From Chryseobacterium gleum (GTDB taxonomy: Bacteria > Bacteroidota > Bacteroidia > Flavobacteriales > Schleiferiaceae), in contig CAMCXO010000010.1 in NCBI GenBank assembly GCA_945883565.1, positions 8,019-72,018 of the forward strand: a stretch of DNA of 64,000 nucleotides, written 5' to 3'. The position numbers were made by a program, and so were the translations under genes. Below the pieces are notes generated by a model. The model searched no databases, had not been told where the DNA came from, and saw only the letters and a program-made list of their open reading frames with translations. Below, piece by piece: positions 37,461 to 64,000 of this stretch. Position 1 is the first letter of the stretch. Each line of letters starts with the position of its first letter.

Positions 37461-37471
37461 CTTCTCCAATT

Positions 37472-48013: not shown

Positions 48014-48032
48014 ATGGTGGATATTTTGGTGG

Positions 48033-48830: not shown

Positions 48831-48887
48831 CGTTTAGGCTAAAATTTGTTGCCGAATGTATAAAAACGTCTTTCATAAAACTTCGGC

Positions 48888-48918
48888 ATCACGGAAAACC
48901 GTGATTTACAAAATCACA
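48888..48918. promoter_or_regulatory. candidate operator: perfect inverted repeat ATCACGGaaaaCCGTGAT plus a third half-site ATCACA 7 nt downstream
   Basis: Seen directly in the divergent intergenic region between the 48033-48830 (-) gene and the 48993 (+) T9SS gene. Confidence 0.35.
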
Positions 48919-48992
48919 GAATAAAGGGACTTTGATGTTGCAGAAACCCATGACTTTCGTCTACATCAACATCACCCTAAATTCCAATCGCC

Positions 48993-51900
48993 ATGAATAA
49001 CAAACCCCACATCAACGAAGGCCTGTCAAAAAATTTACCCCAGCGCCCAAAAGAAGTTAAATGGATTCGGTTAACGGCCGCTTTTCAATTGCTGCTGTGC
49101 CTTCTGGGAATTTTGGCTTTGAGTCAGGCACAGGCTCAAATACCCATTCACTTGCCAAATCACTTTAGTGCAACAGACCGTATAAATGCGTTTGCCGAAA
49201 AAGGCGATACCTTGTTTTTGGCCGGGGCTTTCGAGAGTTTAGCGCCTGTTCATCCTTTTGGCGCCATCAGCAACTTGGCCATGGATCAAATAAACTACCA
49301 GGCAGCTACTCCAAACAACGAAGTTTTTGATGCCATTGCCGATGGACAAGGTGGTTTTTATGTGGGGGGCAGTTTTACGCAGGTAGGCGGCCTAGTCCAG
49401 AACCGCGTGGCCCACTATGATGCCAATGGACAATTACTACCGCTCTCTGTTTCGGTTGACGATGGCCACGTTGAGTCTTTGGCTTTATCGGGGAATATTT
49501 TGTTTTTGGGCGGGTCGTTTACTTCGGTTGATGGACAAGCCAGAACCGGTTTGGCCGCCTATGATTTACAATCGGCCAGCTTATTGCCTTGGAATCCAGT
49601 GTTTACAAGTGTATTCTTAACACCTTGGGTAGGTAAGTTACTTATTCACAATCAAACCCTTTATGTAGGAGGGTTTTTTAATCAGGTAAATGCACAACCC
49701 CGAACTTTATTGGCGGCTTTCGACCTCAATACTTTGAATTTAAATGCCTTTGCACCCAGTATCTCGGGTTTTACGGTAGAAGATATGTTGGTGCACAACG
49801 ACCATTTATATTTTTGCGGTGATTTTACCAGTGTTCAGGCCACATCCAGAAAAAGCGTAGCGGCTATAAATCTTTCCAATAATCAGTTAAGCAATTATGC
49901 CCCTATTATCACGGGTACTGTAAGTTCAATGGTTTTTCACAATGCTGCTATTTATTTAGGAGGATCATTTAATGCCTCAGGCTCTTTGTTCCGCGGACTT
50001 TTGTCGAGTAACCCAAATACCGGCAGCTTCAACCTTAACTGGGTTCCAGGTTTTAATACTGCGGTTATTGAAAAAATGGCAGTTATAAACAACACATTAT
50101 GGGTAGGTGCAAGCCAAATCTCGTACAGCAGTGGAAGTCCATCTAAGCGGTTTGTGGCTCTGGACTTAAATACCGCACAAAGATTGCCCAGTTCTTTAGC
50201 TAGCGATGCGAATATCAATACCTTTTGCCAATCAAACAACCAGGTTTTTGTTGGTGGAAAGTTTAAAACCATTGGTACAGGAAACAAGAATTACTTGGCA
50301 GCCATTTCCAAAAGCACAGGAGCGGTATTGGCATGGGCTCCCTTTGTAAACAAAGAGGTAGATGCCCTTTTGGTAGATGGTAATACCTTGTATGTTGGCG
50401 GCCGATTTACCGAAATAAATGGAAACGCTGCCGGCTATTTAGCTGCCTTCGATTTTAATGCCGCCGGCAATTTGTTGCCATGGAACCCAAATATGAGCCA
50501 TGCGGTATACAGCCTTGCCCAATCCAATCAAGTGCTTTATGCAGGTGGCAATTTTACCCAAGCAAATGGACAAGCCCGGAACCGTTTGGCCGCATTCGAT
50601 AAACTGAATGGGGCTTTATTGCCATGGAATCCCGGCGCCAATGCTTGGGTTTTGGATTTGAAAGTGCATAACAACACTTTGTATGTAGGCGGGCAATTCA
50701 CCCAATTGTCAGGCATTCAAAGAAATTATGCCGGAGGCTTTGATTTAACCACTGGGTTATTGGCCAATTGGAATCCCAACGCCAATGGCATAATAAGAAG
50801 TATTGCGCCCGATGGACTAAATATTTACATAGCCGGAGACTTTACCAATTTGGGAGGACATCCAAATGCCGGTGGGTTTTTACGACTTCGATTGGCTGAA
50901 GTAGATGCCCTTAATGGGGTTCCTACGTCTTGGGAGGCTGCAGACAATACGTTTTTAAGTCCCGACATTCAGTCGGTTAACAGTTTAGCCATTTTAGATT
51001 CAACCTTGGTTGTGGTGGGTGAGTTTACCAAAATAGGAGTAGGGGGCGCATTGCGCTTAAATGCAGCTTTGCTAAGCAAACAAACCGGAATGGCCCTTAA
51101 CTGGAATCCATTTGATGCCTCAGCATCGCTTTCGAAGGTGTATTATTCCGATAATAAAATTTACATAAGCGGAAACATGGATCAAGTGGATGGGCAACTA
51201 CGAAGAAATTTAGCCGTATTCCAAATCAATCCGGCTCCGGTTTGCCCTACGCATCAATTAAACGCCATGGTACAGCCAACTTATTCGGTGGCTTTAACCT
51301 GGAATGCCATAGCCCCACAGCACCGTTTACAATGGCGTACGCTAAACGAAGCAAACTGGTCATCGGCACTGGTTGCCGGCACCCAACGCTTTATTCAGAA
51401 TTTAGCCCCGGGCGATTACGAAGCCCGCGTTTATGGAGTGGGTTTAGGCGATACGTCTTGCCTTGTAACCTTTAATATTGGCTGTGCCAACAACATAAGC
51501 TATGCTTCCAATGTATTTCAAGCCGGTTACCTCGATGCTTTGCCCGGCAACAGCGCCCGGGTAAGTGTATTTAATGTAAGCGGCGGAAAAAGCCTTTACA
51601 GCTTCGAACTTGAAAACCTATCTAACAACGGCATTCAAAGAGCAGACAACAGGCGCAATTACACCTTCAATCAACTGGCCGGCGGCAACTATGTGCTGAG
51701 GGTATATGACGCCTTTAACTGCCAAGCCGATTCTGTTACCCCCATCGCCATAAACGCCCTCGATACGGCCTATATACCTAACTTAATTAGCGCAGTAAAC
51801 AGCAGTCCCAATGGTTTCAGACCCATTTGGAACCATCCGCGCCAAAATGGCGCTTTAATGCCGGGTATTTTGAGCTACCAACTGCGGGTGCGCAACGAAA

Positions 51901-52331
51901 CCGACAACCAATTGGTGGATTTGTACACAGGCATAGCCGATACTTTCTTCCACGTAAACAACCTCACCCCCGGCAAATTGTACCGCTTTAACGTTAGGAG
52001 TCGCTACAATCCGGGCGATGGGGCCCGCAATTCGGCCTTTTCTGTACGCCGCGACCGAAACCTGGGCTTAGGCGGCAATAAAACAGAGGGTGCAACAGGA
52101 GTTGAAGAATACATTCGCATCTTCCCCAACCCCGCAACCGATGCGGTGTATGTAGAATGCCCAATAGGCAGCCACATAAAACTCCTCGACCTCCAAGGCC
52201 GGTTGTTGAAAAGCTTAACCACTGATAAGCCTGTAATTAGTCTAGATTTGGGTGCCTGTTCAAGAGGCACTTATATACTTGAAATCGATAACCAAGGCCA
52301 ACTTAACCGCCAAAAAGTGGTGAAACCATAA
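48993..52331 (+). CDS. T9SS-secreted delta-60 repeat beta-propeller protein with C-terminal FN3-like modules and type-A sorting domain
   Basis: 1112 aa. Signal peptide. More than ten degenerate ~50-60-aa repeats of the form GG.FT..NG...R..LAA.D..G.LLPWNP (delta-60 / TIGR02608-like). The C-terminal ~340 aa is paralogous to the C-terminus of the 57886..62838 gene. C-terminal CTD is FPNPATDAVYVECPIGSHIKLLDLQGRLL...KVVKP. Confidence 0.8.
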   Translation: MNNKPHINEGLSKNLPQRPKEVKWIRLTAAFQLLLCLLGILALSQAQAQIPIHLPNHFSATDRINAFAEKGDTLFLAGAFESLAPVHPFGAISNLAMDQINYQAATPNNEVFDAIADGQGGFYVGGSFTQVGGLVQNRVAHYDANGQLLPLSVSVDDGHVESLALSGNILFLGGSFTSVDGQARTGLAAYDLQSASLLPWNPVFTSVFLTPWVGKLLIHNQTLYVGGFFNQVNAQPRTLLAAFDLNTLNLNAFAPSISGFTVEDMLVHNDHLYFCGDFTSVQATSRKSVAAINLSNNQLSNYAPIITGTVSSMVFHNAAIYLGGSFNASGSLFRGLLSSNPNTGSFNLNWVPGFNTAVIEKMAVINNTLWVGASQISYSSGSPSKRFVALDLNTAQRLPSSLASDANINTFCQSNNQVFVGGKFKTIGTGNKNYLAAISKSTGAVLAWAPFVNKEVDALLVDGNTLYVGGRFTEINGNAAGYLAAFDFNAAGNLLPWNPNMSHAVYSLAQSNQVLYAGGNFTQANGQARNRLAAFDKLNGALLPWNPGANAWVLDLKVHNNTLYVGGQFTQLSGIQRNYAGGFDLTTGLLANWNPNANGIIRSIAPDGLNIYIAGDFTNLGGHPNAGGFLRLRLAEVDALNGVPTSWEAADNTFLSPDIQSVNSLAILDSTLVVVGEFTKIGVGGALRLNAALLSKQTGMALNWNPFDASASLSKVYYSDNKIYISGNMDQVDGQLRRNLAVFQINPAPVCPTHQLNAMVQPTYSVALTWNAIAPQHRLQWRTLNEANWSSALVAGTQRFIQNLAPGDYEARVYGVGLGDTSCLVTFNIGCANNISYASNVFQAGYLDALPGNSARVSVFNVSGGKSLYSFELENLSNNGIQRADNRRNYTFNQLAGGNYVLRVYDAFNCQADSVTPIAINALDTAYIPNLISAVNSSPNGFRPIWNHPRQNGALMPGILSYQLRVRNETDNQLVDLYTGIADTFFHVNNLTPGKLYRFNVRSRYNPGDGARNSAFSVRRDRNLGLGGNKTEGATGVEEYIRIFPNPATDAVYVECPIGSHIKLLDLQGRLLKSLTTDKPVISLDLGACSRGTYILEIDNQGQLNRQKVVKP

Positions 52332-52353
52332 TCAACCATAAAACCAAATCGAA

Positions 52354-54642
52354 ATGAATTTTCAAATCATACTTTTTCTTTTTTGCGCGGGTCTTTTCAC
52401 GCTTAACGCCCAACAACCCGGCAGTTTGGATGTGTCGTTCAATCCGGGAACGGGCGCGAATAATGTTGTTAATTGTATACGTATTCAGCAAAATGGCAAA
52501 ATCTTAATTGGAGGTGATTTCACTTCTTATCAAGGCATTACCCGAAACAGAATAGCCCGTTTAAATGCTGATGGCAGTTTAGACCCTACGTTTAATCCCG
52601 GTAGTGGGGTGAATGGTGAGGTAAAGTGTATAGTAATCCAGCCCGATGGCAAAATCCTAATCGGAGGCAATTTTACCGTGTGCAATGGTAACCCTCGCAA
52701 TAGAATAGCTCGGTTAAATTCGAATGGCAGTTTGGATGCTAGCTTTAACCCTTCGTCGGGGTCCAATAATGAAGTTCTCGATATGGCCCTTAATTCTACA
52801 TCCGGAAAAATTACGGTAGTAGGAAGTTTCACCGAATTTAATGGAATTGCCACAGGCAGAATAGTCCGCCTAAATTCTAATGGCAGCATAGACCCGAGCT
52901 TTAACAGCGGAATAGGTTCAAACAACGCCATTACTTCGATTATTTTACAAACAAATGGAAAACTTATAATAGGGGGCAATTTCGATACGTACAATGGTAT
53001 TTCTCGCAGCCGAATTGCACGCCTTAATGTAAATGGTGGTTTAGATTTTACGTTCAATCCCGGCACGGCAGCAAACACATTGTCTATAGTGAATGCCATC
53101 ATTCATCAGCCCGATGGTAAAATTATAATAGGAGGCGATTTCGGTACATTTAATGGTGTTACGCTCAACAGAGTAGCCCGCTTGAATACCGATGGTAGCC
53201 TCGATAACACCTTTAATCCAGGGGTGGGTGCCAACCTTGATGTTTACACCATGGCCCTTCAACCCGATGGTAAAATTTTAATTGGAGGCAACTTTACTAC
53301 ATATAACGGCAACGTTCTTAATAGAATGGCTCGACTTAATGCCAACGGAAGCTTAGATACCACTTTCAATACGGGCTTAGGTTTTACAACCGGGGCAAAT
53401 TTTGTTTTTGTGTCGGAAATTGCCATTCTAAACGATGGTCAGGCCCTTGTAGCAGGTTCGTTTACCCGTTACAACGGAATCAGCCGTAAGCGCATGGCTA
53501 AACTTCATGCTTATAGAAACATTTATACCGATTCGGCCATTGTTACCGGACCAAGTTCGGCGGCGGTGCACGCTACCGTTGTTTCAGGAGGCGGGGCTCC
53601 AATAACGGCGCGAGGCTTTTGTTTCAATACTTCAGGTAATCCCAACTTGTCCGATAGCACCACTTTAAATGGAATGGGGCTTGGTAGTTTTGGTCAAGTT
53701 TTAAACAACCTTGCACCGGGCACTACCTATTATGTAAAAGCTTATGGCACAAATAGTATAGGCACAAGTTATGGCAACGAATTGAGCTTCATAACCCAGT
53801 ATTCAGCCCCAAGTTTAATTACCGACAGCGTTACTGATATGGCATTTTTTACAGCCAAGGTTTATGGAAATGTTCTCTCTAATGGGGGATCAGCCATTTC
53901 ATCGCGTGGTTTTTGTTACAATACCACCGGCAGTCCGAGTTTGTCCGACAGCATCAAAACAGCAAACGGCAGTTTAGGCAATTATAGCCGTCAGCTCAAT
54001 GCTTTAGCTTCCAACACCACCTATTACGTAAAGGCCTATGCCACCAACAGTGTGGGCACGGCTTATGGCAACGAGTTGAGCTTTTCAACTTTAAGCTACC
54101 TGGCGCCAGATTTAAGCACCGATAGCATTTCCAACATTAGCCGCACTGCTGCCAAGGTTTATGGAAATGTTTTTTCTAATGGGGGTTCAGCCATTTCATC
54201 GCGTGGCTTTTGTTACAACACCACCGGCAGTCCCAGTTTGTCCGACAGCATCAAAACAGCAAACGGCAGTTTAGGCAATTATAGCCGTCAGCTCAATGCT
54301 TTAGCTTCCAACACCACCTATTACGTAAAGGCCTATGCTACCAACAATGTGGGCACGGCTTATGGCAACGAACTTAGTTTTACCACAGCCGGATTAGGCT
54401 TAAACAGCCCGAATATCCCTAAGTTAAGGGTATTCCCCAACCCCGCAACCGATGTGGTGTATGTAGAATGCCCAATAGGCAGCCACATAAAACTCCTCGA
54501 CCTCCAAGGCCGGTTGTTGCAAAGCTTCATCACAGAGAGCATTCAAGCCGGTTTAAACCTGGCCGCTTATGCCAAAGGCAGTTATGTGCTTCAAATAGAG
54601 CATCAATCTTTTGTAAGTCGACAAAAAGTGGTGAAACATTAA
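52354..54642 (+). CDS. T9SS-secreted delta-60 repeat protein with triplicated Ig/FN3-like modules and type-A sorting domain
   Basis: 762 aa. Signal peptide. Canonical delta-60 repeats (GGDFTSYQGITRNRIARLNADGSLDPTFNPG...) x~8. Three modules ...RGFCYNTTGSPSLSDS...TTYYVKAYATNSVGTAYGNELSF, the last two near-identical at DNA level. CTD nearly identical to that of the upstream gene. Confidence 0.85.
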   Translation: MNFQIILFLFCAGLFTLNAQQPGSLDVSFNPGTGANNVVNCIRIQQNGKILIGGDFTSYQGITRNRIARLNADGSLDPTFNPGSGVNGEVKCIVIQPDGKILIGGNFTVCNGNPRNRIARLNSNGSLDASFNPSSGSNNEVLDMALNSTSGKITVVGSFTEFNGIATGRIVRLNSNGSIDPSFNSGIGSNNAITSIILQTNGKLIIGGNFDTYNGISRSRIARLNVNGGLDFTFNPGTAANTLSIVNAIIHQPDGKIIIGGDFGTFNGVTLNRVARLNTDGSLDNTFNPGVGANLDVYTMALQPDGKILIGGNFTTYNGNVLNRMARLNANGSLDTTFNTGLGFTTGANFVFVSEIAILNDGQALVAGSFTRYNGISRKRMAKLHAYRNIYTDSAIVTGPSSAAVHATVVSGGGAPITARGFCFNTSGNPNLSDSTTLNGMGLGSFGQVLNNLAPGTTYYVKAYGTNSIGTSYGNELSFITQYSAPSLITDSVTDMAFFTAKVYGNVLSNGGSAISSRGFCYNTTGSPSLSDSIKTANGSLGNYSRQLNALASNTTYYVKAYATNSVGTAYGNELSFSTLSYLAPDLSTDSISNISRTAAKVYGNVFSNGGSAISSRGFCYNTTGSPSLSDSIKTANGSLGNYSRQLNALASNTTYYVKAYATNNVGTAYGNELSFTTAGLGLNSPNIPKLRVFPNPATDVVYVECPIGSHIKLLDLQGRLLQSFITESIQAGLNLAAYAKGSYVLQIEHQSFVSRQKVVKH

Positions 54643-54660
54643 AGTTCGACAGCAAAACGA

Positions 54661-54687
54661 AAAGCCGCCTTCGGGCGGTTTTTTTAT
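54661..54687 (+). terminator. rho-independent terminator
   Basis: AAAGCCGCCttcgGGCGGTTTTTTT. Confidence 0.8.
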
Positions 54688-54895
54688 GCTTTAAGCCAAA
54701 AGCTTTGGGGTAAACCGCCATAACACCAACACCAAAAGCCAATGCCAAGTCTATAAAATGGCAATGGTTTTAGGGCCATAACGCCAACCCCCAAAAAGCC
54801 CAAAGGTCTTAACAAAGCCATAATACGGCCTTGACAATGCCTCGGCAGTCCCCTTCTACTTTTGAAGGGTTCTGAACCAAGGGAAGCGTATTCCC

Positions 54896-56776
54896 TTGAT
54901 TCGGCCATCAAACACCATTCGTATGTTGAGCCAATTTCTAAAACAGAAGTACTTTCCGGTTTGGGTAATGCTATTTTCTTTAGGCCTTAGTCTTTTAAGC
55001 CTCAGAACATCTTCTACCCAAATGGCCCATGCGGCCTACGAATCATGGTTCTTAAATACCGATGCCCTCCTCCGCAGCAAAGCCGAAGCAGCCATTGAAT
55101 CGGCTAACTTATACCTCAATCAACCCAACCTTCAAGCTCAGGTTCAATACGATGTGGCCCAGCTTCGATTGGCCTATAAAGCCATAGAGTGGTGGGCAGC
55201 TTTCCATTTTCCGGAGTATTGTGAAGAATACCTAAACGGCGCACCGGTTATGCAAAGCGCCCGACTCGATAACCGAAGTTTCGCCAAATTGCCCGAAGGC
55301 TTGCAAGTAATAGACGAAGCTGTTTGGGAACCATCTTTAGACGATGAACTCAAAAGCAAAACGGCTCAAGACATCTTGCAATTCAGAAACCGTTATTTCA
55401 TTTTAAGAAACCATCTTAAAGACCTTAGTCCAAAACCCAAAGAAGCCTCTACCGCCATGCGGCTCGGAATTGTGCGCTTGTTTAGTTTGGGCTTAAGTGG
55501 TTTCGATACGCCTGGCTCGCAAAATGCCTTGGCCGAAAGCGCCGCAAGTCTTCGTTCCATGCAAGAATGCTTGCCATGGTTGCATTTTGAACCCGGGCAA
55601 TTACAAAAACTCGATTCGCTGTTTCATTTAGGTATTATAACCCTTAACCAAGCCCAATCATTCGAATCGTTCGACCGCCTGCATTTTCTCAAGCAGGTTG
55701 TAAATCCGCTTTATGCCGCTTTGTACGAACCCGGACAGCAACCGAATAACCGTGGTTGGAACCCAGAGAGTAAATCGCTATTCGACCCACATTTTCTAAA
55801 TCCATACTTCTTTACCGAACTAACGCTTGAAGAGGATTCAAAGGAGCTAAGGGCCCTCGGACAACAACTGTTTAACGATGTAACCCTAAGCAAATACCAA
55901 AACCTGAGTTGCGCTACCTGTCATCCTTCCCATTTGGCATTTCAAGATGGATTGCCAAAATCTGAATCTAACCAAAATGGCACCCAATTAGAGCGAAATA
56001 CACCGGGCTTGATTAACTCGGTATTTGCCGACCGCTATTTTTACGACCTTCGGGCCTATACCCTCGAGCAACAAGCCGAACACGTTATTTTCAACGCTTC
56101 TGAATTTGCCACCAATTACAACGAAATCATAGAGCGTCTCAATGCCCAAAAGGCCTACCGAAAAGCCTTTAAAAAAGCATTGGGTAAAAAGCAGATAGAA
56201 AGAGCCGACGTACAAGCGGCTTTGGCTTCTTACGTTTTATCGCTTACAGCCTTTAACAGTCCGTTCGATCGCTATGTAAGGAACGAATCCGAATCGCTGA
56301 ACCCCGATGCCATTAGGGGCTTTAACCTGTTTATGGGGAAGGCCGCTTGCGGAACTTGCCATTTCGCCCCATTGTTCTCAGGTTTGCTGCCTCCCGAATT
56401 TAGAAAAAGCGAAAGCGAAGTAATTGGCGTTTTGTCTAAACCCATCGAAATGGAAAACAACCCCCAAAACGCAGGATTAGACGCTGACCTTGGGCGCTAT
56501 AACAATGGGGTGCCCAGCGAACAACTTCAAGCCCACAAGCATGCTTTCAAAACCACCGGATTGCGAAATGCCCAAAAAACAGCGCCTTATTTTCACAATG
56601 GAGCCTATCCAAGTATGAAATCGGTTTTAAACTTTTACAACCACGGAGGCGCCGCCGGTTTGGGATTAGACCTGCCAATACAAACCTTGGCGGCCGATTC
56701 TCTGCACTTAACCACCGGCGAGATTCAAGACTTAGAAGCCTTTATCAACAGCTTGACCGATGTTCCACCATACTAA
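54896..56776 (+). CDS. di-heme cytochrome c peroxidase family protein with ~300-aa N-terminal extension
   Basis: 626 aa. Two CxxCH heme motifs (CATCH and CGTCH); conserved CCP/MauG blocks NTPGLINSVFADRYFYD and APYFHNGAYPSMKSVLNFYNHGG. N-terminal TM/signal segment. Confidence 0.8.
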   Translation: MIRPSNTIRMLSQFLKQKYFPVWVMLFSLGLSLLSLRTSSTQMAHAAYESWFLNTDALLRSKAEAAIESANLYLNQPNLQAQVQYDVAQLRLAYKAIEWWAAFHFPEYCEEYLNGAPVMQSARLDNRSFAKLPEGLQVIDEAVWEPSLDDELKSKTAQDILQFRNRYFILRNHLKDLSPKPKEASTAMRLGIVRLFSLGLSGFDTPGSQNALAESAASLRSMQECLPWLHFEPGQLQKLDSLFHLGIITLNQAQSFESFDRLHFLKQVVNPLYAALYEPGQQPNNRGWNPESKSLFDPHFLNPYFFTELTLEEDSKELRALGQQLFNDVTLSKYQNLSCATCHPSHLAFQDGLPKSESNQNGTQLERNTPGLINSVFADRYFYDLRAYTLEQQAEHVIFNASEFATNYNEIIERLNAQKAYRKAFKKALGKKQIERADVQAALASYVLSLTAFNSPFDRYVRNESESLNPDAIRGFNLFMGKAACGTCHFAPLFSGLLPPEFRKSESEVIGVLSKPIEMENNPQNAGLDADLGRYNNGVPSEQLQAHKHAFKTTGLRNAQKTAPYFHNGAYPSMKSVLNFYNHGGAAGLGLDLPIQTLAADSLHLTTGEIQDLEAFINSLTDVPPY

Positions 56777-57689
56777 ATTTCGTTTCACTTGGCTGACTGC
56801 TTTCGTGTGTATTTTGATTTTACCCATACCACTAAAAGCCCAGTTTGCCGATCCTACTGCCATTGTTCACACCAGCATGCAATCGGCATTGGCCGATACT
56901 TCTAAACGGGTTCACCTCAACCTTCGCGATCAAAAACTGTTGTTGGTAAGTCCTCAATTGGCCGAAATTCAACACTTGGTGTTTCTTAATTTAATGAAAA
57001 ACCAATTGGAAGATTGGCCAATGGCTTTAAACTCAGCCAAAGCGCTTGAAGTGCTCAATTTGCGCGAAAACCGCTTGGTTGTTATTCCGGCCAGCATTAA
57101 CGAATTAAAGCAGCTGCGCACCCTCGATTTAATTCAAAATGAAATCAAAGCCTTACCAAGCCAAATAGGCGACTTGCAAAACCTGGAGTACGCTTATTTC
57201 AACCTCAATCGGCTTACCAGATTGCCCGAATCTTTGGGCCAATGCAGTAGGCTAAAAGTTCTTGAACTTCAGGTGAACCAACTAAGCAGTCTTCCCGCAG
57301 GCATTCAAAATTTGAGTAACCTAAAAGTATTGCGCCTTTCCGACAACCATTTTTACGACTTGGGCGAACATTTGAAAGGACTAAAAAGCTTAGAAGAACT
57401 CCATCTCGACAAAAACCGTTTGCAAAAGTTGCCGAATGAGATAGGGGGACTTAAAAACCTCAAAGTTTTGATGCTAACCAACAACCAGCTAAGCCAGCTG
57501 CCCGAATCGCTTTGCCAACTCGAAAAGTTAGAAATGCTCCTGCTTTCTGATAATCCACTGAAACAATTGCCCCAAAACATTCATCGCCTTAAAGCTCTAA
57601 GAACACTGAGTCTTTTAAATTGCCCCATTGGCGAAGACGAAAAAGCCCGAATTGTGAAAGCCCTCCCCAATTGCAGGGTGGTGTTTTAA
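56760..57689 (+). CDS. leucine-rich repeat (LRR) protein, secreted
   Basis: 309 aa. Signal peptide; about 10 LRRs (LxxLxLxxNxLxxLPxxIxxL). Overlaps the CCP gene by 17 nt. Confidence 0.8.
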   Translation: MFHHTKFRFTWLTAFVCILILPIPLKAQFADPTAIVHTSMQSALADTSKRVHLNLRDQKLLLVSPQLAEIQHLVFLNLMKNQLEDWPMALNSAKALEVLNLRENRLVVIPASINELKQLRTLDLIQNEIKALPSQIGDLQNLEYAYFNLNRLTRLPESLGQCSRLKVLELQVNQLSSLPAGIQNLSNLKVLRLSDNHFYDLGEHLKGLKSLEELHLDKNRLQKLPNEIGGLKNLKVLMLTNNQLSQLPESLCQLEKLEMLLLSDNPLKQLPQNIHRLKALRTLSLLNCPIGEDEKARIVKALPNCRVVF

Positions 57690-57885
57690 GATGATTAGGG
57701 TTTTTTCTGTGTCATGAATTTGTGAATAGATTGTTAATGTATTAAAACCTATAATAGTTTGTAATGCTGAGGATTATAAGATTTATGACTTAAAGACTTT
57801 ACAGTATAGTAAAGATAAAATCACATTTCGCTGCTGCTAAGTTCATGTAAGAGTTGGTGCTTCGCTGCAAACCTAAATCCCTTAT

Positions 57886-60800
57886 ATGAAGAAATTTACC
57901 TTCACACTTTTGGGCTTGTGTTGGCTCGCCATTTCGGCAAGCGCACAGGTACAAACCTTCGAGAAGCGCATTGCAGCTTCTACCGACGATGCTGAAGAAC
58001 GTGGCGCCAATGCTACCTCTTCGGTTGGTGCTATGGACATAACCAGCTCCGACCTCGAGCTTACGCGCGACGGAAGCAGCACCGGCAACCAATTTATTGG
58101 CATGCGCTTTATTGGGGTTAACATTCCTCAAGGCGCCATCATCCAAAACGCCTACATTCAGTTTGAAGTAGATGAAACTCCGAACGAAAGCGGAACCCTC
58201 ACCTTCGAAGTGCAAGACGCCGACAATCCGAGCACTTTCGTTAGCACGGGTTTTAACATCTCATCTCGCCCACGTGTAGCCGGTGTTTCAGTAAACTGGA
58301 GCAACATTCCAACTTGGACAGTGGTTCAACAACAGGGCGTTAATCAGCGTACCCCCGATTTGAAAACCTTGGTACAAGCCTTGGTAAGCCGTTCGGGTTG
58401 GGCAAGTGGAAACGCTATGGTATTCATAGTAAGTGGAACAGGCAAACGCACGGCCGAAGCCTATGATGGCTCTACTTCAGGTGCTCCTAAATTGGTGGTT
58501 GAATACGTGGTTCCGGTAACGGCTACTTTCAATATTTTAAGTGGAAACGACGACGTAGAACAAGACGTTAATACTGGGGCAATGGATTTAAGCAGCTCTG
58601 ATTTAGAGTTTACCGCCGATGGCAGCAGCATCCAACTTATTGGTTTGCGCTATGGAAACGTAAGCATTCCTCAAGGTTCTCAAATTTTAAGCGCCTATGT
58701 ACAATTTACAGTAGACGAGGTTAACACCACAGGAACCGTTAACGTTTTAATAGCGGCCGAAAACGCAGCCAACAGCTCGCCCATTACCGCAGCCACCAAC
58801 AACCTGGCTTCTCGCAGCTATACTTTTGGAGCAGTTCCAACCATTTGGACGCCCGGTGCTTTCTCTACCGTAGGCGAAAGCGGTCCTGCACAACGCACTC
58901 CCGATATTTCCGGTCTTATCCAATCATTGGTAAACAATGTGTCATGGAACAGCGGCAATGCCATTTTATTGGGCATGGTTGATCCGGCCATTGTAAGTGT
59001 TCCTGGCTTTAGCCCAAATACGGCTAAGCGCGTGGCCCAAACTTACGACCGCGACCCAAACAACGCCGCTAAATTGGTGGTAAGCTTTATTCCTCCGGCT
59101 ACCTATCAAACCGGAACTTTCCCAATTGCTGCCGGTGCTTCATGGAAATACCTCGACGACGGAAGCGATTTGAGCGGAACCAACTGGACGGCTACCCAAT
59201 ACAACGACAGCAGCTGGGCTTTTGGCAATGCGCCTCTTGGCTATGGCGATCCGGTAACCACCACAGTAGGTTTCGGCCCAGATGCCAACAACAAATACAT
59301 CACCACCTATCTGCGCAACACTTTCACCATGTCGAACACGGCTCAATTCGACAGCTTGCAATTCCGTGTGCGCCGCGACGACGGGGCAGTGGTTTACCTA
59401 AACGGTGTTGAAGTTTTCCGCCAAAACATGCCCAACGGTGCGGTTACGGCCGGTACATTGGCCTCTACAGCAGTAGGCGGAAGCGATGAAACCACTTTCT
59501 TCGTTAACATGACCGATAACCTGTTGGTAAACGGGCTTAACGTGGTAGCGGTTGAACTTCACCAAAGCGCTGCCAACAGCTCCGATATGGTATTCGATAT
59601 GGCCATAAGCGGCAAAAAACCACCTTTGGCAGCAGCAAGCTTCCCATTCTTAGCCGGAAGCGAATGGCATTACCGCGACAATGGCGCTTGTTTCGATGGC
59701 ATGCCATGGAACACCAACGCCATGAGCGACGACAACTGGGCCCAAGGCCGTGCACCACTTGGTTATGGCGATCCAATGGCCACCACCATTTCTTTTGGTC
59801 CAGATCCTAACAACAAATTCATTACCTATTATTTCCGCCGCGATATCGACATCGATCTAGCCCAATTGCCCGATACCATCGAATTTGGTCTTCGTCGCGA
59901 CGATGGCGGGGTGGTTTATGTAAATGGTGTGGAGCTTTTCCGCAGCAATATGCCAAGTGGCGTATTTACTTGCGATTCTACCGCCCCTGCTACCATTGCC
60001 GGTGGAGACGAAACCGTTTACTACACCTACCTATTGCCTAAAACCGTTTTCAACCAAGGCATCAACGTTTTGGCCGTAGAAATTCACAACCGCGATATTT
60101 TCAGCTCAGACCTGGGATTCGATCTTTACATCAAAACCCCTCCTTTCTTTAACCCACCGGCTTTAGGTTGTTCTAATGGCAACGAGGCACATTTTGCTTG
60201 CTTCACCTCTTTGCAGCCATCGGCCCAAGGCCCCACAATGGTGATTCCTTCAAGCCACCGCTTCCAAATGTTGTGGAAACAAGGTCAAGCCTACAGCAAA
60301 GGCGGAGGCATTGCACCCGGTTTACACGACTTCACCGGCTATGTAGCCACGAACGGCAGCAGCGAACTAGGGCATCTTTCTATTAACCACGAAACCGCTC
60401 CTGGTGGTGTGTCTTTGCTCGATATGCACTACGACAACGCTTCTAACCTTTGGGTTATAGACACTTCAGAAGCAGTAGATTTCAGCCATCCGGCTTTGGT
60501 TCGCACCGAACGCAACTGTTCTGGCGGCATTACCCCTTGGGGAACGGTGGTAACAGCCGAAGAAACAGGATCTGCAGCCGATGCCAACAACGATGGTTAT
60601 TTTGATGTGGGTTGGTTGGTAGAAATAGATCCGGTTTCGGCCAAAGTACGCGATTACGACAACGACGGAAATCCAGATAAAATTTGGGCTGCCGGCAATG
60701 CCAGCCACGAAAATGCTTGCTTCACCAACGATTCGGCCGTAATGTACTGGGGCGAAGATGGCGGTTCAAGCGCGGTATTCAAATACGTAATGACCAGCAA

Positions 60801-62838
60801 AGGCGATTTAACCAACGGCATGCTTTACGTATTAAAACTCGATCAGCCTTTGGCAGGTGGCGAGCCCACCGGCACCACCGCTACTTGGGTATTGGTTCCA
60901 AACACCACCCAAAGCGAACGCAACAATACCCGCAGCTTGGCTATTGGATTGGGCGCTACCAACTTTAATGGGGTAGAAGACGTAGAAATCGGTCCTTTAG
61001 ATGGCAAAATCTATTTTACCGGAAAAGGCAACAACCGCACTTGGAGATTCACCGACAATGGTTCTACCATTTCTAACTTCGAAACTTTCGTGGGCGGAAC
61101 CAGCTACAACATCACCTCTAACAACGGCAACTTTACCGAATCTTGGGGAAGTGGAAACGACAACCTTACCTTCGACGACCAAGGCAATTTGTATGTGCTG
61201 CAAGATGGAAGCCGCAACCACCTTTGGATGGTGCGTCCAGACCACACCCAAACCACGCCTAAGGTTGAGCTTTTCATCAAAACCCCAGCCGGTTCTGAAC
61301 CTTGTGGCATGACCTTCACCCCCGATTTCCGTTTCGCTTTCTTGTCTATTCAGCACCCAAGCGGTTCTAATGCCGCCCAAATGGATGCCTCAGGCAATAT
61401 GGTGGCTTTCAATGCATCGGCAGCTTTCGTTATAGCCCGCAGCGAGCACCTTGGCAGCCAAAAACCAAGCGTTCAAACCTTGGGTGTTAACCAAATCACC
61501 TCACAGTCGGCAGTGGTAGAAGCTCAGGTAACCGACAATGGCGGTATGGCCCTTACAGCCCGCGGTGTTGCTTACGATACTTTGACCAACCCAACCTTGG
61601 CCAATCAGTTCACCTCCGATACCACCATGGCCAACAACTACACCACCCAGTTAAGTGGATTAAATGGCAGCACTACCTATTATGTTCGCGCCTATGCCAC
61701 CAACGCTTTGGGAACCTCTTATGGCAACGAAATGATGTTTACCACCAAGGCCGCTTGCCTTAACATTTTATCGGCTGCCCCCGGCATTAATGGAGATTAC
61801 AACCAATCGTTCTCTTGGACGCCTATTAGCGGTGCCACCAATTACCGTTTACAATGGCGCTCAGTAGGAAGCATGAACTGGGCAGGCAATACCTTGTCGG
61901 CTACCCAAAGGCTTATTCAAAACCTGGCTCCCGGTAACTACGAAGCCCGTGTATTCGCTATAGGATTGGCCGATACATCTTGTACAGTAAACTTTAGCAT
62001 AGCCTGCGCCACCAACATCAGCTATTCGGCCAATACTTTCCAGGCAGCTTACCTAAATCCATTGCCAAGCAGCAGCGCCCGTGTAAGCGTGTTCAACGTA
62101 AGCGGAGGAAAGAGCCTTTACACCTTCCAGTTGGAAGATCAGAATGGCAATATGCTACGCGCCGAAAACCGCCGCAATCACACCTTTAGCCAATTGGCCG
62201 GAGGCAATTATATGTTGAGCGTATTCGATGCCTTTAACTGTGAGGCCGATTCGGTAATGGCCATTCAGATCAACAGCCTCGATACAGCTTACATACCCAA
62301 CCTTTTGGGTGCCACCAACAGCAGTCCAAACGGCTTTATGCCTTTCTGGAACCGCCCACGTCAAAATGGTATTTTGATGCCCGGTGTAGTGAGCTACCAG
62401 GTACGCGTGCGCAACGAAACCGACAACCAATTGGTGAATTTGTATACCGGAATCGCCGATACTTTCCACCACGTTAACAACCTTACCCCCGGTAAGTTGT
62501 ACCGCTTTAACGTACGCAGCCGCTACAACGCCGGTGCCGGCGATCAAAACTCTGCCTTCTCGGTTCGCCGAGACCGCCAGTTGGGAGTTTCAGGCAATAA
62601 AAACGAAGAGAGCCGCCACGAGGTACGCGTTTACCCCAATCCAACCAGCGATTTGGTAAACATCGAAACCACCGAAGCTACTCAAATTGAATTGCTCGAT
62701 TTACAGGGCCGTTTGTTGCAAAGCTTTACCGTTAATGGACTGTACACCCTACCATTAAGCGCTTACAGCCAAGGCACTTATGTGCTTAAGCTGAAAATGC
62801 AGGAGGGCACCCAAACCATTAAAGTGGTGAAACACTAA
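57886..62838 (+). CDS. giant T9SS-secreted multidomain protein with PhoX/DUF839-like phosphatase-type beta-propeller domain
   Basis: 1650 aa. Signal peptide. Two ~190-aa N-terminal repeats (DDAEERG...MD.SSSDLE.T.DGSS). Two Trp-rich ~150-aa repeats (SWKYLDDGSD...DSSW.G.APLGYGD). Central region RTERNCSGGITPWGTVVTAEE...GWLVEIDP...AGNASHENACF...LYVLQDGSRNHLW resembling PhoX/DUF839. C-terminal FN3-like modules and type-A CTD (VYPNPTSDLVNIE...KVVKH). Confidence 0.7.
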   Translation: MKKFTFTLLGLCWLAISASAQVQTFEKRIAASTDDAEERGANATSSVGAMDITSSDLELTRDGSSTGNQFIGMRFIGVNIPQGAIIQNAYIQFEVDETPNESGTLTFEVQDADNPSTFVSTGFNISSRPRVAGVSVNWSNIPTWTVVQQQGVNQRTPDLKTLVQALVSRSGWASGNAMVFIVSGTGKRTAEAYDGSTSGAPKLVVEYVVPVTATFNILSGNDDVEQDVNTGAMDLSSSDLEFTADGSSIQLIGLRYGNVSIPQGSQILSAYVQFTVDEVNTTGTVNVLIAAENAANSSPITAATNNLASRSYTFGAVPTIWTPGAFSTVGESGPAQRTPDISGLIQSLVNNVSWNSGNAILLGMVDPAIVSVPGFSPNTAKRVAQTYDRDPNNAAKLVVSFIPPATYQTGTFPIAAGASWKYLDDGSDLSGTNWTATQYNDSSWAFGNAPLGYGDPVTTTVGFGPDANNKYITTYLRNTFTMSNTAQFDSLQFRVRRDDGAVVYLNGVEVFRQNMPNGAVTAGTLASTAVGGSDETTFFVNMTDNLLVNGLNVVAVELHQSAANSSDMVFDMAISGKKPPLAAASFPFLAGSEWHYRDNGACFDGMPWNTNAMSDDNWAQGRAPLGYGDPMATTISFGPDPNNKFITYYFRRDIDIDLAQLPDTIEFGLRRDDGGVVYVNGVELFRSNMPSGVFTCDSTAPATIAGGDETVYYTYLLPKTVFNQGINVLAVEIHNRDIFSSDLGFDLYIKTPPFFNPPALGCSNGNEAHFACFTSLQPSAQGPTMVIPSSHRFQMLWKQGQAYSKGGGIAPGLHDFTGYVATNGSSELGHLSINHETAPGGVSLLDMHYDNASNLWVIDTSEAVDFSHPALVRTERNCSGGITPWGTVVTAEETGSAADANNDGYFDVGWLVEIDPVSAKVRDYDNDGNPDKIWAAGNASHENACFTNDSAVMYWGEDGGSSAVFKYVMTSKGDLTNGMLYVLKLDQPLAGGEPTGTTATWVLVPNTTQSERNNTRSLAIGLGATNFNGVEDVEIGPLDGKIYFTGKGNNRTWRFTDNGSTISNFETFVGGTSYNITSNNGNFTESWGSGNDNLTFDDQGNLYVLQDGSRNHLWMVRPDHTQTTPKVELFIKTPAGSEPCGMTFTPDFRFAFLSIQHPSGSNAAQMDASGNMVAFNASAAFVIARSEHLGSQKPSVQTLGVNQITSQSAVVEAQVTDNGGMALTARGVAYDTLTNPTLANQFTSDTTMANNYTTQLSGLNGSTTYYVRAYATNALGTSYGNEMMFTTKAACLNILSAAPGINGDYNQSFSWTPISGATNYRLQWRSVGSMNWAGNTLSATQRLIQNLAPGNYEARVFAIGLADTSCTVNFSIACATNISYSANTFQAAYLNPLPSSSARVSVFNVSGGKSLYTFQLEDQNGNMLRAENRRNHTFSQLAGGNYMLSVFDAFNCEADSVMAIQINSLDTAYIPNLLGATNSSPNGFMPFWNRPRQNGILMPGVVSYQVRVRNETDNQLVNLYTGIADTFHHVNNLTPGKLYRFNVRSRYNAGAGDQNSAFSVRRDRQLGVSGNKNEESRHEVRVYPNPTSDLVNIETTEATQIELLDLQGRLLQSFTVNGLYTLPLSAYSQGTYVLKLKMQEGTQTIKVVKH

Positions 62839-62863
62839 AAAGAAACGCCTTACCAAACCAAAA

Positions 62864-62890
62864 GGCCGCCTTCGGGCGGTCTTTTTTTTT
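62864..62890 (+). terminator. rho-independent terminator
   Basis: GGCCGCCttcgGGCGGTC followed by T9. Same hairpin core as the terminator at 54661. Confidence 0.85.
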
Positions 62891-62959
62891 GACTTAAAAT
62901 AGGGCGCCCCCGCGCGGGGCAAAAGGTTTATGCAAGGCCAAAATACCATCAGCCCCTCG

Positions 62960-62992
62960 CGGGCCGGGCTTTCCGCTCCAAGTCCTCGCCGC
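62960..62992 (+). repeat. GC-rich conserved motif, copy 2 (CGGGCCGGGCTTTCCGCTCCAAGTCCTCGCCGC)
   Basis: 32 of 33 identical to 36791..36823. Flanking similarity extends further (GGGCGCCCCC upstream; GGCTG(Y)GGGCTTT...CTGGCGCGG downstream). Confidence 0.8.
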
Positions 62993-63187
62993 CATTGTCT
63001 GAACCATGATTTTCTGGATTTAAGGATGGGCATGATTAATTCAGAAGGCTTTGGTCAAGGCGGCTGCGGGCTTTACGCTGCAATCGCTGGCGCGGACTGT
63101 CTGGTTTTTTTGTTGTTTGTTCTTGTAGAAACGTTATTTATTTTTGTTAAGACTTGGTTCAAATTACCTGCCTTGATGAGCGCATCT

Positions 63188-63280
63188 CTGCGAAGGTGAC
63201 TTACGAGACTGCGAAGGTGAGTGACGAGACTGCGAAGGTGACTTACGAGTCTGCAGATGGTGACTTACGAGACTGCGAAG
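63188..63280. repeat. 21-22-nt tandem repeat, about 4.4 units (CTGCGAAGGTGACTTACGAGA)
   Basis: Direct reading gives four and a partial head-to-tail units. The same period as the 36894-37460 array but a different unit sequence. Confidence 0.8.
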
Positions 63281-63510
63281 TAAGCCGACACTCATTGCCG
63301 ACCTTGTGTTTTTTATTTTTTCCCACCCGCATTTTTTAAAAACAATTTTAGCCAAACCGCAAGTGGCACATTTGGCTTTAACCCCACCCGCAAGCCGACC
63401 CTTCGCAAAACCAAAAGAGCCATTCTTTGCCAACGCCATGACTAATTAATGTGACAACTGTTAATAATAAACACAAGTTAAACATGAGGGAAACTTTCGA
63501 TTCCATAAAT

Positions 63511-63527
63511 TTGTCAAAACCTGACAA
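63511..63527. promoter_or_regulatory. candidate operator palindrome TTGTCAaaaccTGACAA, 5 nt upstream of the HTH-MTase start codon
   Basis: Perfect 6-bp arms with a 5-nt spacer. HTH-fused C5-MTases of the SsoII type and C-proteins autoregulate via such sites. Confidence 0.45.
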
Positions 63528-63532
63528 GTCAT

Positions 63533-64000
63533 ATGAGAGAAACGATTGGACAATATATAAAAACCCTTAGAAATGACAAGGGTTGGACACTTACTCAACT
63601 TGCCGCAAAGCTTGATATTGATTCTGCCAATTTGAGTAAGATTGAAAACGGTAAGAGAGAACTTGATGAAAAAAAACTGACCAAGCTTTGTAAAATTTTC
63701 CAACTCGATAAATCTGAAATGGAAAAAGAGTTAGTAAGTGAAAAAATAGCGAGAGCTATTTGCGACAAAGAGCTAGACCAATCTATCCTAACTCTTGCAG
63801 AAGAAAAAATTAAATACATTAAATACGGTTCCATCTCACACCAAACTGATTATTCAATTGCAACTGAATCTGACTTGTTTGGTGAAAATGACTGGAGATT
63901 AAAAGAGTTTTCTAATCCTACGGCAGAAATAAGAATTGGAACTTTGTTTAGTGGCATTGGAGCCATTGAACATGCTTTTAGACGACTTAATTTAAATCAT
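63533..64000 (+). CDS. HTH (XRE-family) domain fused to a DNA (cytosine-5)-methyltransferase, N-terminal 156 codons; open to the window end
   Basis: Translation MRETIGQYIKTLRNDKGWTLTQLAAKLDIDSANLSKIENGKRE is a Cro/C1-type HTH. It ends with IRIGTLFSGIGAIEHAF, which is C5-MTase motif I (FxGxG, AdoMet binding). No stop codon before 64000. GC drops sharply here relative to the rest of the window. Confidence 0.6.
   Translation, partial: MRETIGQYIKTLRNDKGWTLTQLAAKLDIDSANLSKIENGKRELDEKKLTKLCKIFQLDKSEMEKELVSEKIARAICDKELDQSILTLAEEKIKYIKYGSISHQTDYSIATESDLFGENDWRLKEFSNPTAEIRIGTLFSGIGAIEHAFRRLNLNH

Follow-up and report, generated by a model that had tools for sequence, protein, structure and literature searches.

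Probable left part of an autoregulated and mobile Type II restriction-modification cassette in the last 900 nt of a Bacteroidota window

In restriction-modification (R-M) systems of the M.SsoII/M.Ecl18kI type, which also includes M.EcoRII, M.MspI and M.ScrFIA, the C5 cytosine methyltransferase carries a helix-turn-helix (HTH) domain fused to its N-terminus. M.Ecl18kI/M.SsoII binds a palindromic operator, distinct from the methylation site, at its own promoter and there represses transcription by sterically excluding RNA polymerase (PMC2760811, PMC3978073). A second group is formed by the classical controller (C) proteins (C.PvuII, C.AhdI, C.BclI, C.Esp1396I, C.Kpn2I), which have an XRE fold, are dedicated to R-M systems and are autoregulatory; of these, C.Esp1396I and C.Kpn2I also repress the promoters of methylase (M) genes (PMC3488213, PMC6237814). 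The classical C gene precedes the restriction (R) gene and is co-transcribed with it. Here we analysed a window of 64,000 nt from a Bacteroidota genome; very probably, its last stretch is the left part of a Type II R-M cassette that moves horizontally and regulates itself. By analogy, the unit would work like M.SsoII but is laid out otherwise. All features described below that have a strand lie on the forward strand.

The last 468 nt of the window (63533-64000) hold the 5' part of a gene that is open for 156 codons and runs off the window. The preliminary description read this gene as an HTH domain fused to a C5 methyltransferase, and this is what we found: an XRE-type HTH (Pfam HTH_3 on residues 9-60, 47.2 bits) stands in one open frame with methyltransferase motif I, the FxGxG AdoMet-binding loop (LFSGIGAIEHAF; residues 138-149, 63944-63979), and the window ends 7 residues past this motif. 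The HTH domain is predicted to form six helices over residues 5-99 (63545-63829; pLDDT 86), followed by a linker of about 30 residues (residues ~100-132). Intact fused orthologues of 496-507 aa were found in 10 GTDB genomes and in about 17 contigs from metagenomes, and all have motifs I, IV (PCQ), VI (ENV) and VIII (QxRxR) and a conserved linker (...DLFGENDWRLKEF...), with protein identities that span 48% to 95%. The best amino-acid identity to the window protein is 88% in GTDB genomes and 95% in JGI metagenomes; the relatives in the 88-95% range are intact, have 505 aa and the full set of methylase motifs, and have an HNH nuclease gene downstream. By homology, the complete window protein would have about 505 aa. 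In two relatives, PF00145 matches residues 134-498 with 275-280 bits, and TIGR00675 matches one of the two with 291 bits. The solved structure closest to the methylase domain is M.HhaI (PDB 10mh and others, E 2e-50), which has no HTH domain.

It is highly improbable that the HTH and the methylase are in fact two genes, a controller and a methylase, joined in the window through misassembly or by a recent event akin to pseudogene formation. Most members of the HTH family are free-standing proteins of ~108 aa with a separate methylase gene downstream, and in two close relatives from raw-read assemblies (L002 and L003) the HTH is separated from the methylase by +1/-1 frameshifts in A runs. In L003 this leaves an HTH of 105 aa and a methylase of 391 aa that was called as a gene of its own; the split form therefore exists or arises easily. 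Against this reading stand the ~27 independent complete fused ORFs with their conserved linker and wide range of identity. Moreover, the breaks in L002 and L003 are single-base changes in A runs, and the L003 methylase frame 5' of the called start still encodes the conserved linker.

The HTH homologues are mostly free-standing, and as such they lie directly 5' of DNA methyltransferases of every class. Immediately after the free-standing relatives, a methyltransferase gene is found in nearly all of 58 loci, and the 58 downstream ORFs gave matches to PF00145 (38), Eco57I (13), N6_N4 (10) and N6_Mtase (10). This family, like the classical C proteins, is dedicated to R-M systems and is probably autoregulatory, but it precedes or is fused to M, whereas the classical C gene precedes R. 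The predicted fold resembles SinR, ClgR and the R-M controllers C.BclI, C.AhdI and C.Esp1396I. Foldseek comparison of the predicted structure with classical C proteins gave target-normalised TM scores of 0.63-0.76 at 22-31% identity over 57-68 residues, and phmmer gave E values of 0.017-0.9, no better than for ClgR, SinR and HipB. The XRE five-helix fold is present in the predicted window HTH, together with an extra C-terminal helix pair that classical C proteins do not have; the fold is not discriminating, because many XRE proteins that are not controllers share it. The HTH region of M.SsoII has 71 residues, compared with ~100 residues and six helices in the family described here. A tblastn search against 72,556 plasmids returned weak generic XRE matches only, with no sign of a sequence relationship between this HTH and SsoII-type N-termini.

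In every relative with downstream sequence, a nuclease-type gene abuts the methylase gene on the same strand, downstream, at a gap of -11 to +5 nt. The partner is PF13391 (HNH_2) in nine loci and GmrSD_N in three. By homology, an HNH-type nuclease gene would directly follow the methylase gene in the source genome as well, and would probably be co-transcribed with it. Orphan C5 methylases are common. Their commonness, and the end of the visible sequence at 64000, speak for a solitary HTH-methyltransferase with a role in epigenetic regulation or in protection against similar R-M systems, but the adjoining nuclease-type gene in all relatives with downstream sequence makes this unlikely. For the R-M unit that we favour, the downstream and co-directional nuclease gene seen in relatives differs from the divergent one of the M.SsoII type; the promoter-competition circuit of Ecl18kI, which switches R on, therefore cannot apply.

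A putative operator, the palindrome TTGTCA-aaacc-TGACAA (TTGTCAaaaccTGACAA; 63511-63527, half-site centres 11 bp apart), is present in a single copy in the window and ends 5 nt 5' of the ATG, where a perfect palindrome had already been pointed out. By itself, the window palindrome is no more than chance would give, with 0.23 matches of at most one mismatch expected in the window and a match in 21 of 100 shuffles, and its significance comes solely from the related loci. There, exact TTGTCA-N5-TGACAA was found in 60 of 78 GTDB loci (71 of 78 with at most one mismatch) and nowhere else in 1.07 Mb. Across 1.7 Mb of related loci we detected 133 copies, all upstream of HTH homologues and each 21-50 nt 5' of the start codon (ATG) of an ORF for 80 aa or more. 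The arms are invariant among the related loci while the spacer sequence varies, which argues for a protein site and not an RNA stem. The operator is kept with any methyltransferase class and therefore goes with the HTH and not with methylation specificity.

The left arm overlaps a Bacteroidota-type -7 box (TAAATTTG, 63506-63513), the last three bases of which are the first three of the operator. The consensus of this box in Bacteroidota is reportedly TAnnTTTG (Bayley 2000; Chen 2007), and TAnnTTTG occurs in the same register in 111 of 119 unique operator contexts. At the -33 position the window reads CATG, not TTTG/TTG. A sigma-70 promoter scan of the region was uninformative for Bacteroidota. 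The promoter is of the Bacteroidota -33/-7 type, unlike that of M.SsoII, and the operators differ too: 6-5-6 (TTGTCA-N5-TGACAA) here, and a 15-bp AGGACA..TGTCCT in M.SsoII. The C-box of the classical C proteins consists of tandem palindromes (OL and OR) that serve activation and then repression, compared with the one 6-5-6 palindrome on the -7 box here. The preliminary description had proposed an M.SsoII-like or C-protein-controlled layout; the HTH fusion and the palindrome at the gene's own promoter agree with this, but in the relatives the nuclease gene is not divergent, and the HTH probably comes from another family.

The HTH domain probably binds this palindrome. Since the left arm overlaps the -7 box, part of its conservation could be promoter-driven, and the arms contain cytosines, so that the palindrome might instead be a promoter element, a host-factor site or a CfrBI-like methylation-sensitive switch read by the methylase domain. 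We regard this as very unlikely, since the right arm and the spacing of exactly 5 nt are no less conserved than the left arm, the motif is exclusive to the region upstream of the HTH family (133/133 copies), and linkage to an N6 or Type IIG methyltransferase leaves it unchanged. With the HTH as the binding protein, the palindrome could still be an activator site or a dual activator/repressor site. Classical controllers activate and repress (PMC2175313), and in related loci of the 35-37-nt class a second conserved motif, ACAAGTC, lies 14 nt downstream of the palindrome and could be a second half-site. The fused class lacks ACAAGTC, however, and has one palindrome and no tandem pair; furthermore, the palindrome overlaps both the -7 box and the expected start site, where a bound protein would exclude the polymerase. 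An activator, or a dual activator and repressor, is accordingly improbable here, and we infer that the sign of regulation is negative, with autorepression as the best-supported mechanism.

Under autorepression, the promoter would be free after entry into a cell, and methylase and co-transcribed nuclease would be made. With rising concentration of the fusion protein, the two half-sites, one helical turn apart, would be occupied by two HTH domains, and the bound pair would block the -7 box and the start site and turn off its own transcription in a negative feedback. In an operon that holds both M and R, autorepression of this simple kind would not alone delay the nuclease. Taken alone, the gene is one more HTH-methylase fusion of a known class. 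The regulator-operator pair, TTGTCA-N5-TGACAA on the -7 box with its HTH, accompanies all methyltransferase classes across Bacteroidota, and constitutes a testable model of R-M control in a phylum with promoters unlike the E. coli paradigm; the operator motif can also serve as a sequence tag for finding such units. A literature search found no described M-linked controller or hairpin-flanked R-M cassette in Bacteroidota, which is weak evidence for novelty given the incomplete coverage of the search.

An upstream ORF of 28 codons plus stop (ATG at 63484, stop at 63568-63570; 63484-63570) had been described with 27 codons and as a possible leader peptide or translational-control feature. The ORF exists with 28 sense codons, and the near-duplicate starts of this ORF and of the methylase gene (ATGAGGGAAAC and ATGAGAGAAAC) are real. 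Its ATG is absent in four related loci, the closest relatives read TTTG or CTTG at this position, which is the expected -33 box, and the start lies 5' of the -7 box at 63506-63513. We therefore rejected the leader-peptide reading, as the ORF is not conserved, and judge the ORF fortuitous.

The AT-rich DNA that holds the gene is foreign and variably present. The region 63440-64000 has a GC content of 0.333 (whole window, 0.442), and the last 560 nt are the lowest-GC 560-nt stretch of the 64 kb (mean 0.442, sd 0.035). The methylase ORF fragment has a GC of 0.340 and a GC3 of 0.256, compared with 0.445±0.023 and 0.452±0.052 for the 26 long ORFs of the window, so that its GC3 lies 3.8 sd under the window's genes. 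Elsewhere, the same cassette occurs at 80-88% nucleotide identity in at least seven different genomic contexts, and in three higher-GC hosts its GC is ~0.34 while that of the flanks is ~0.46. The edge itself could be placed with a contig (L001) that was the sole one recovered via the neighbouring 1650-aa protein. Its positions 1-15211 equal window 47886-63096 at 99.98% identity, with three mismatches in all (63051, 63060 and 63067); past 63096/63097 it is unrelated to the window, and it ends 487 nt further on. The first DNA absent from this contig (63097-63132, no strand assigned) is T-rich and ends in CTTGTAGAAAC, and the segment 63097-63260 has no relatives beyond one 39-nt match. The probable edge of acquired R-M DNA that the preliminary description proposed is supported by this near-identical contig without the DNA. 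The composition shift it put at about 63440 is real when measured, but the edge is ~340 nt further left: given the breakpoint at 63096/63097 and a leader conserved from ~63262, the fall in GC at 63440 occurs within the acquired DNA. Of the flanking marks of a classical genomic island, namely a tRNA gene, an integrase or direct repeats, none was found on the side that the window shows; the 64-kb window has no tRNA or tmRNA.

The breakpoint coincides with the end of a dispersed repeat and may reflect chimeric assembly of either the window contig or L001. The adjoining GC-rich dispersed repeat and a second low-GC stretch would fit a native tail, with the difference from L001 an assembly artefact and no acquired island at all. 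This is extremely unlikely, in view of the GC3 of the methylase fragment and of the unrelated contexts, with flanks of higher GC, in which the cassette sits elsewhere. The second low-GC stretch, at ~20.0-20.8 kb, reaches 0.341, and the tail value is therefore extreme and not unique.

Within the acquired DNA, the 21-nt-period repeat reported earlier was recovered as a tandem array of 4.4 copies with the consensus unit CTGCGAAGGTGACTTACGAGA (63188-63280; Tandem Repeats Finder, 86% matches). Alignment with leaders of the L048 type shows that a segment of the leader, present once in related cassettes (ACTTACGGACTGAC...), has been amplified locally. A CA-rich non-coding leader conserved with cassettes of other Bacteroidota follows (63262-63355), and blastn homology to the nearest relatives starts at 63350-63360. 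Next is a conserved hairpin (63356-63430) with the stem GGCACATTTGG / CCAAAAGAGCC and two A.A mismatches, which covariance model R1 matches with 50.3 bits (E 1.8e-10) and matches nowhere else in the window. The stem covaries across related copies and the MFE fold gives the same stem; the thermodynamic z of -0.76 is not significant, and the support comes from covariation only. From comparison with the related copies, this hairpin appears to be the left member of a hairpin pair around defence cassettes, R-M cassettes among them, and a second copy would be expected to the right of the methylase and nuclease genes. Rfam gave no match in 62800-64000 (E<=0.1) and none on the hairpin copies of several loci; elsewhere, its matches are to Flavo-1 only. 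Of the first 80 matches to the hairpin pattern in IMG/VR, 6 pass the covariance model, and the hairpin is therefore not notably phage-borne. The hairpin itself was rejected as a canonical attC, as it has no AAC/GTT ends.

The ends of the related cassettes resemble those of integron cassettes. Integrons are known to carry defence cargo (bioRxiv 10.1101/2024.07.02.601686) and are reportedly almost absent from Bacteroidetes (PMC9024848). In the related loci, the cassettes end in ...AAC / GTT..., and an imperfect palindrome of ~120 nt extends from AAC to the next GTT; under a strict ungapped palindrome test, 17 of 59 right ends pass, compared with 1.3% of random regions. In 12 related loci, the GTT box at the left end is the complement of the AAC (R'') box at the far right end of the same cassette. 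The mean inverted-repeat length is 7.9 for a cassette's own left and right boxes and 2.8 for the mismatched-pair control. In the window, GTTATTTAT (63133-63141) is a putative left-end core (R'-like box), by analogy with related loci that start exactly at GTT, and by eye the CTTGTAGAAAC that ends 63097-63132 resembles the 3' arm and spacer that precede GTT in those loci. At its left end, the cassette in the window has a GTT core at 63133 and a short 3'-arm-like stretch, with no full palindrome upstream; an attC-like fold at 62985-63150 is not significant (z -0.67). The complement of GTTATTTAT, ATAAATAAC, would be the AAC-type box expected at the right end of the cassette. From left to right, the cassette would consist of the junction at 63096/63097, the GTT core at 63133, the leader with its amplified 21-nt segment, the hairpin, the promoter with -7 box and palindrome, and the fusion gene.

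The likeness to integron cassettes, including CALIN and defence-carrying chromosomal ones, comprises the AAC/GTT ends, the left-right box complementarity and the ~120-nt palindrome, which were seen in related loci and are incomplete in the window, as well as the co-oriented genes and defence cargo of the related loci. Unlike integron cassettes, there is no linked integron integrase here, the L-box stems in related loci are ~20 bp, and the units have 2.7-7 kb, their own promoters and an extra internal conserved hairpin pair. Among 96 flanking ORFs we found no linked integron integrase (IntI) or attI, integrase or transposase; PF00589 tyrosine recombinase matches occurred in 3 of the 96, and the flanks hold diverse housekeeping genes. 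A recombinase may act in trans. It is possible, and we propose it tentatively, that the window R-M unit belongs to an undescribed, phylum-wide family of integron-like defence cassettes in Bacteroidota that are moved in trans, start at G|TT+x, end in x'+AAC with a ~120-nt attC-like palindrome after it, contain a hairpin pair and often have the HTH/operator module. Such cassettes would have a direct-orientation hairpin pair, GCACATTTG...CAAAAGAGC with two A.A mismatches, around their genes; the hairpins would shield toxic cargo from outside transcription or serve recombination, and the HTH/operator module would autoregulate the methyltransferase. If the boundary features are recombination sites, integron-like exchange of defence genes would extend to a phylum thought to be nearly integron-free, and would explain how identical R-M cassettes come to lie at many unrelated places in chromosomes with no mobility gene linked to them.

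On the resident side of the junction, the intergenic DNA with GC-rich dispersed repeats (62891-63096, no strand assigned) is common to the window and L001 up to 63096. It includes the second leader copy named in the preliminary description, at 62953-62992, which is 93% identical to 36784-36823 (repeat family D10). The terminator reported there at 62864-62890 is also present, as an intrinsic terminator (62860-62890) with an 11-bp stem (62860-62885, 6 G-C pairs) and a T run to 62890. It lies outside the cassette and serves the upstream gene (57886-62838), which encodes the 1650-aa protein with T9SS/PhoX domains (Pfam) and is co-directional with, and unrelated to, the methylase gene.

The end of the window is probably the start of an autoregulated restriction-modification (R-M) cassette, and the preliminary description, which had proposed an HTH-C5 methylase with its operator in acquired R-M DNA, was right in its main interpretation. 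Genes of this type are known; what is new is a distinct regulator family with a promoter-embedded operator, together with the surrounding cassette architecture. The ORF begins at ATG 63533 (plus strand) and stays open to the window end (156 codons visible), and the completeness of the fusion was judged from relatives. It carries an XRE-type HTH domain (HTH_3 in Pfam, 47.2 bits, residues 9-60) and C5 methyltransferase motif I (LFSGIGAIEHAF, residues 138-149), and the proposed in-frame fusion is borne out by intact fused relatives. Complete fused ORFs (496-507 aa) numbered 10 in the GTDB genome scan, from hosts that include Chitinophagaceae, Vicingaceae, Bacteroidales and Parabacteroides, and about 17 more came from the JGI metagenomes, with at most 95% identity to the window protein over 156 residues; neither scan recovered the contig of the window itself. 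FxGxG and a conserved linker are present in all complete fused relatives, as are PCQ and ENV, the C5 motifs for which a check had been suggested, and QxRxR. PF00145 scores 275-280 bits in the related loci L005 and L086 (residues 134-498), TIGR00675 scores 291 bits in L005, and the closest solved structure to the methylase is M.HhaI. Two raw-read assemblies, L002 (~60-110) and L003 (~520-560), have the fusion broken into two ORFs at the HTH-methylase junction, where A runs differ in length by a single base. Given the ~27 intact copies, we read these splits as sequencing errors or decay; slippage is a further possibility.

The palindrome TTGTCAaaaccTGACAA (63511-63527) lies 5 nt before the ATG, as had been claimed, and on its own it is unremarkable (chance expectation 0.23 with at most one mismatch). 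Its conservation across HTH loci is what distinguishes it. We picked 78 GTDB loci solely because they encode an HTH homologue. The 80 nt before the start contain the exact motif in 60 of these loci, and in 71 when one mismatch is allowed; no further exact copy turned up in 1.07 Mb. Over all 164 related loci we detected 133 copies, each before the ATG of an ORF of at least 80 aa, at a distance of 21-22 or 35-37 nt and rarely of 25, 40 or 50 nt. The arms are invariant and the 5-nt spacer is variable, a pattern expected of a protein-recognised site, and the half-site centres, 11 bp apart, would suit a dimer on one helix face. The two spacing classes (L018-L164) differ in that the 35-37-nt class carries a second ACAAGTC motif directly before the ATG, and the 21-22-nt class looks like a 14-nt deletion between both ACAAGT repeats.

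The Bacteroidota -7 box is reportedly TAnnTTTG (attributed to Bayley 2000 and Chen 2007). In 111 of 119 unique contexts this sequence stands ahead of the motif, and its final TTG opens the left arm, so that a bound dimer would lie over both the -7 box and the start site and would block polymerase access at the gene's own promoter. Autorepression as in M.Ecl18kI is the best-supported mechanism, in which we infer both the binding and its sign. The same promoter bears on an upstream ORF for which a leader-peptide or translational-control role had been suggested. The ORF exists, but has 28 codons rather than 27, the sole numerical slip among observations that all proved real. Its ATG (63484) aligns with TTTG in L005 and CTTG in L003 and sits ~20 nt upstream of the -7 box, at the expected position of the -33 box. 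Because this ATG is found in the window only and lies upstream of the likely transcription start, we regard the ORF as fortuitous.

A protein search returned mainly free-standing XRE proteins of ~100-110 aa that span residues 1-97 of the window protein, and a few fusions. Where the homologue stands alone (58 loci), the ORF behind it nearly always encodes a DNA methyltransferase, at a gap of -41 to +60 nt (mostly -17 to +20; one of 238). The overlapping Pfam matches of these methyltransferases are PF00145 (38), Eco57I (13), N6_N4_Mtase (10) and N6_Mtase (10). This neighbourhood marks the family as an R-M-dedicated regulator placed ahead of the methylase gene (M) rather than the nuclease gene (R), of which the window gene is the variant without a stop codon between regulator and methylase. 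The predicted HTH structure (six helices, pLDDT 86) resembles RghR, ClgR and SinR as well as C.BclI, C.AhdI and C.Esp1396I; sequence similarity to the classical controllers is weak. The proposed working is like that of controller proteins and of M.SsoII, but defining layout features of each are missing here.

All relatives whose sequence continues downstream have a nuclease-type gene directly adjoining that of the methylase (gap -11 to +5 nt), which suggests, from the layout in these relatives, that the unit is an M-then-R operon. SsoII/Ecl18kI differs from this operon-like order in having M and R divergent (PMC2760811). Most loci have an HNH_2 protein of 240-368 aa as the partner; in L007, L014 and L015 it is a GmrSD_N (DUF262) protein of 582-592 aa. 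Thus one HTH-methylase family (55-75% identity) is found with two unrelated nuclease types, the HNH_2-partnered fusions including L005, L006, L008, L010, L011 and L013. The GmrSD_N/DUF262 domain is best known from modification-dependent enzymes. Matches to Flavo-1 RNA (RF01705) occur in or near some cassettes (L003 1792-1867, minus, antisense between the methylase and nuclease genes; L062 1895-1972, minus; L006 16904-16988, plus), and this RNA is not a constant component of the unit.

A conserved, strongly covarying hairpin, GCACATTTG...CAAAAGAGC with two A.A mismatches, brackets R-M and other defence units in loci L003-L164. The window copy (63356-63430) contains GGCACATTTGG...CCAAAAGAGCC, and the energy of its fold is unexceptional. 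With 69 copies as its basis, a covariance model gave 146 matches in 1.76 Mb, of which 145 share the strand of the HTH gene and a single one lies in the window. Among 55 hairpin sequences, pairing holds in 90.7% of cells with few G.U pairs, both sides differ in 274 cells (92.5+-6.9 in shuffles), and the covariation score is 0.626 against 0.157 in shuffles and at most 0.19 in slid controls. An Rfam search with the hairpin matched no family. One copy precedes the operator by ~100-150 nt and another comes 5-20 nt past the unit's last stop codon, in direct orientation (L090, 4350-4423 and 7029-7101; L088, at 750 and 3429). Between the outermost hairpins, ORFs of at least 150 aa number 149 on the plus and 2 on the minus strand, and the cargo comprises Type I, II and IIG R-M, a Piwi-domain protein, SIR2 with HerA, MmeI and DUF3800. 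Candidate roles are transcriptional insulation of a toxic operon and participation in recombination. Flanking ORFs are diverse housekeeping genes, and those within 4 kb outside the units (L005-L164) are mostly co-oriented with the cassettes (198 versus 29).

The cassette ends recall integron attC sites. The shared cassette start falls exactly at GTT (L086 versus L090), and the 6-7 nt following this left GTT have their complement in the 6-7 nt ahead of an AAC at the far right of the same unit, 20-70 nt past the right hairpin and 2.7-7 kb from the GTT. Past the AAC follow an imperfect palindrome with arms of ~20 nt, a spacer of 4-6 nt and then the next GTT, typically 117-123 nt from the AAC. In tandem units the palindrome arms pair mutually and the partner of each AAC box is the GTT box at the far left of the unit to which it belongs, as attC logic predicts; attC-like right ends were identified in L034, L039, L040, L090, L095, L123, L127, L138, L153 and L156. 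Integrons are reported to be nearly absent from Bacteroidetes (PMC9024848), and no integrase linked to the cassettes was found in the flanks of related loci. The sole recognisable end feature in the window is the left-end box, AAAC followed by GTTATTTAT (63133-63141), with no complete palindrome preceding the GTT at 63133 there. An integron-like nature of the window cassette is a lead, and its membership of the class is putative.

The foreign composition noted earlier was confirmed against the window's 26 long ORFs, with GC of 0.340 in the ORF fragment versus 0.445+-0.023 and GC3 of 0.256 versus 0.452+-0.052; GC is 0.333 from ~63440 onward. Cassettes are 80-88% nucleotide-identical in at least seven unrelated contexts, and in three hosts have GC ~0.34 with flanks of ~0.46. 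The edge of the acquired DNA had been put at ~63440, but probably lies at 63097-63133, because of the breakpoint in L001, a near-identical contig, and of where leader homology starts. L001 matches the window at 99.98% over 15,211 nt ending at 63096, encodes an identical 1650-aa protein and is unrelated to the window thereafter; the only three mismatches (63051, 63060, 63067) are no more than 46 nt from the breakpoint. The nearest relatives become homologous at 63350-63360, whereas alignment with a more distant leader type starts at ~63262, inside the last repeat of a 21-nt tandem array (63188-63280), and the array is thus likely a local amplification of a leader segment. A flanking tRNA, suggested as an island marker, was not found in the 64-kb window.

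Before the edge lies a secreted-protein gene of Bacteroidota type with PhoX and Por_Secre_tail domains (57886-62838, plus strand), its canonical terminator (62860-62890) and 206 nt of GC-rich, repeat-bearing DNA (62891-63096, GC 0.56), in which 62953-62992 is 93% identical to 36784-36823. These dispersed intergenic repeats (GGGCTTTnCGCTnCAAnnCCTnGCGC...) occur at 62891-63096, 36720-36895 and 37774-37811 in the window and at 15256-15293 in L001, and the L001/window breakpoint coincides exactly with the 3' end of a copy. Past it, L001 (15212-15583) opens with TTTCATACAGCAAC, resembling the 3' arm ahead of GTT in related loci, and the contig ends after 372 nt (15583). At both window sites a tandem 21-nt array follows the GC-rich repeat. 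The second site (36720-38260), intergenic between htpG and a peptidase gene, has an array in which a different 21-nt unit, CTTCAAACGTTCAACTGCCSR, containing AAAC followed by GTTCAAC, recurs ~26 times, as well as other local repeats and a perfect inverted repeat of 34 nt (37639-37672 / 38080-38113). A second low-GC stretch was detected at ~19950-20850, with 560-nt windows down to 0.341.
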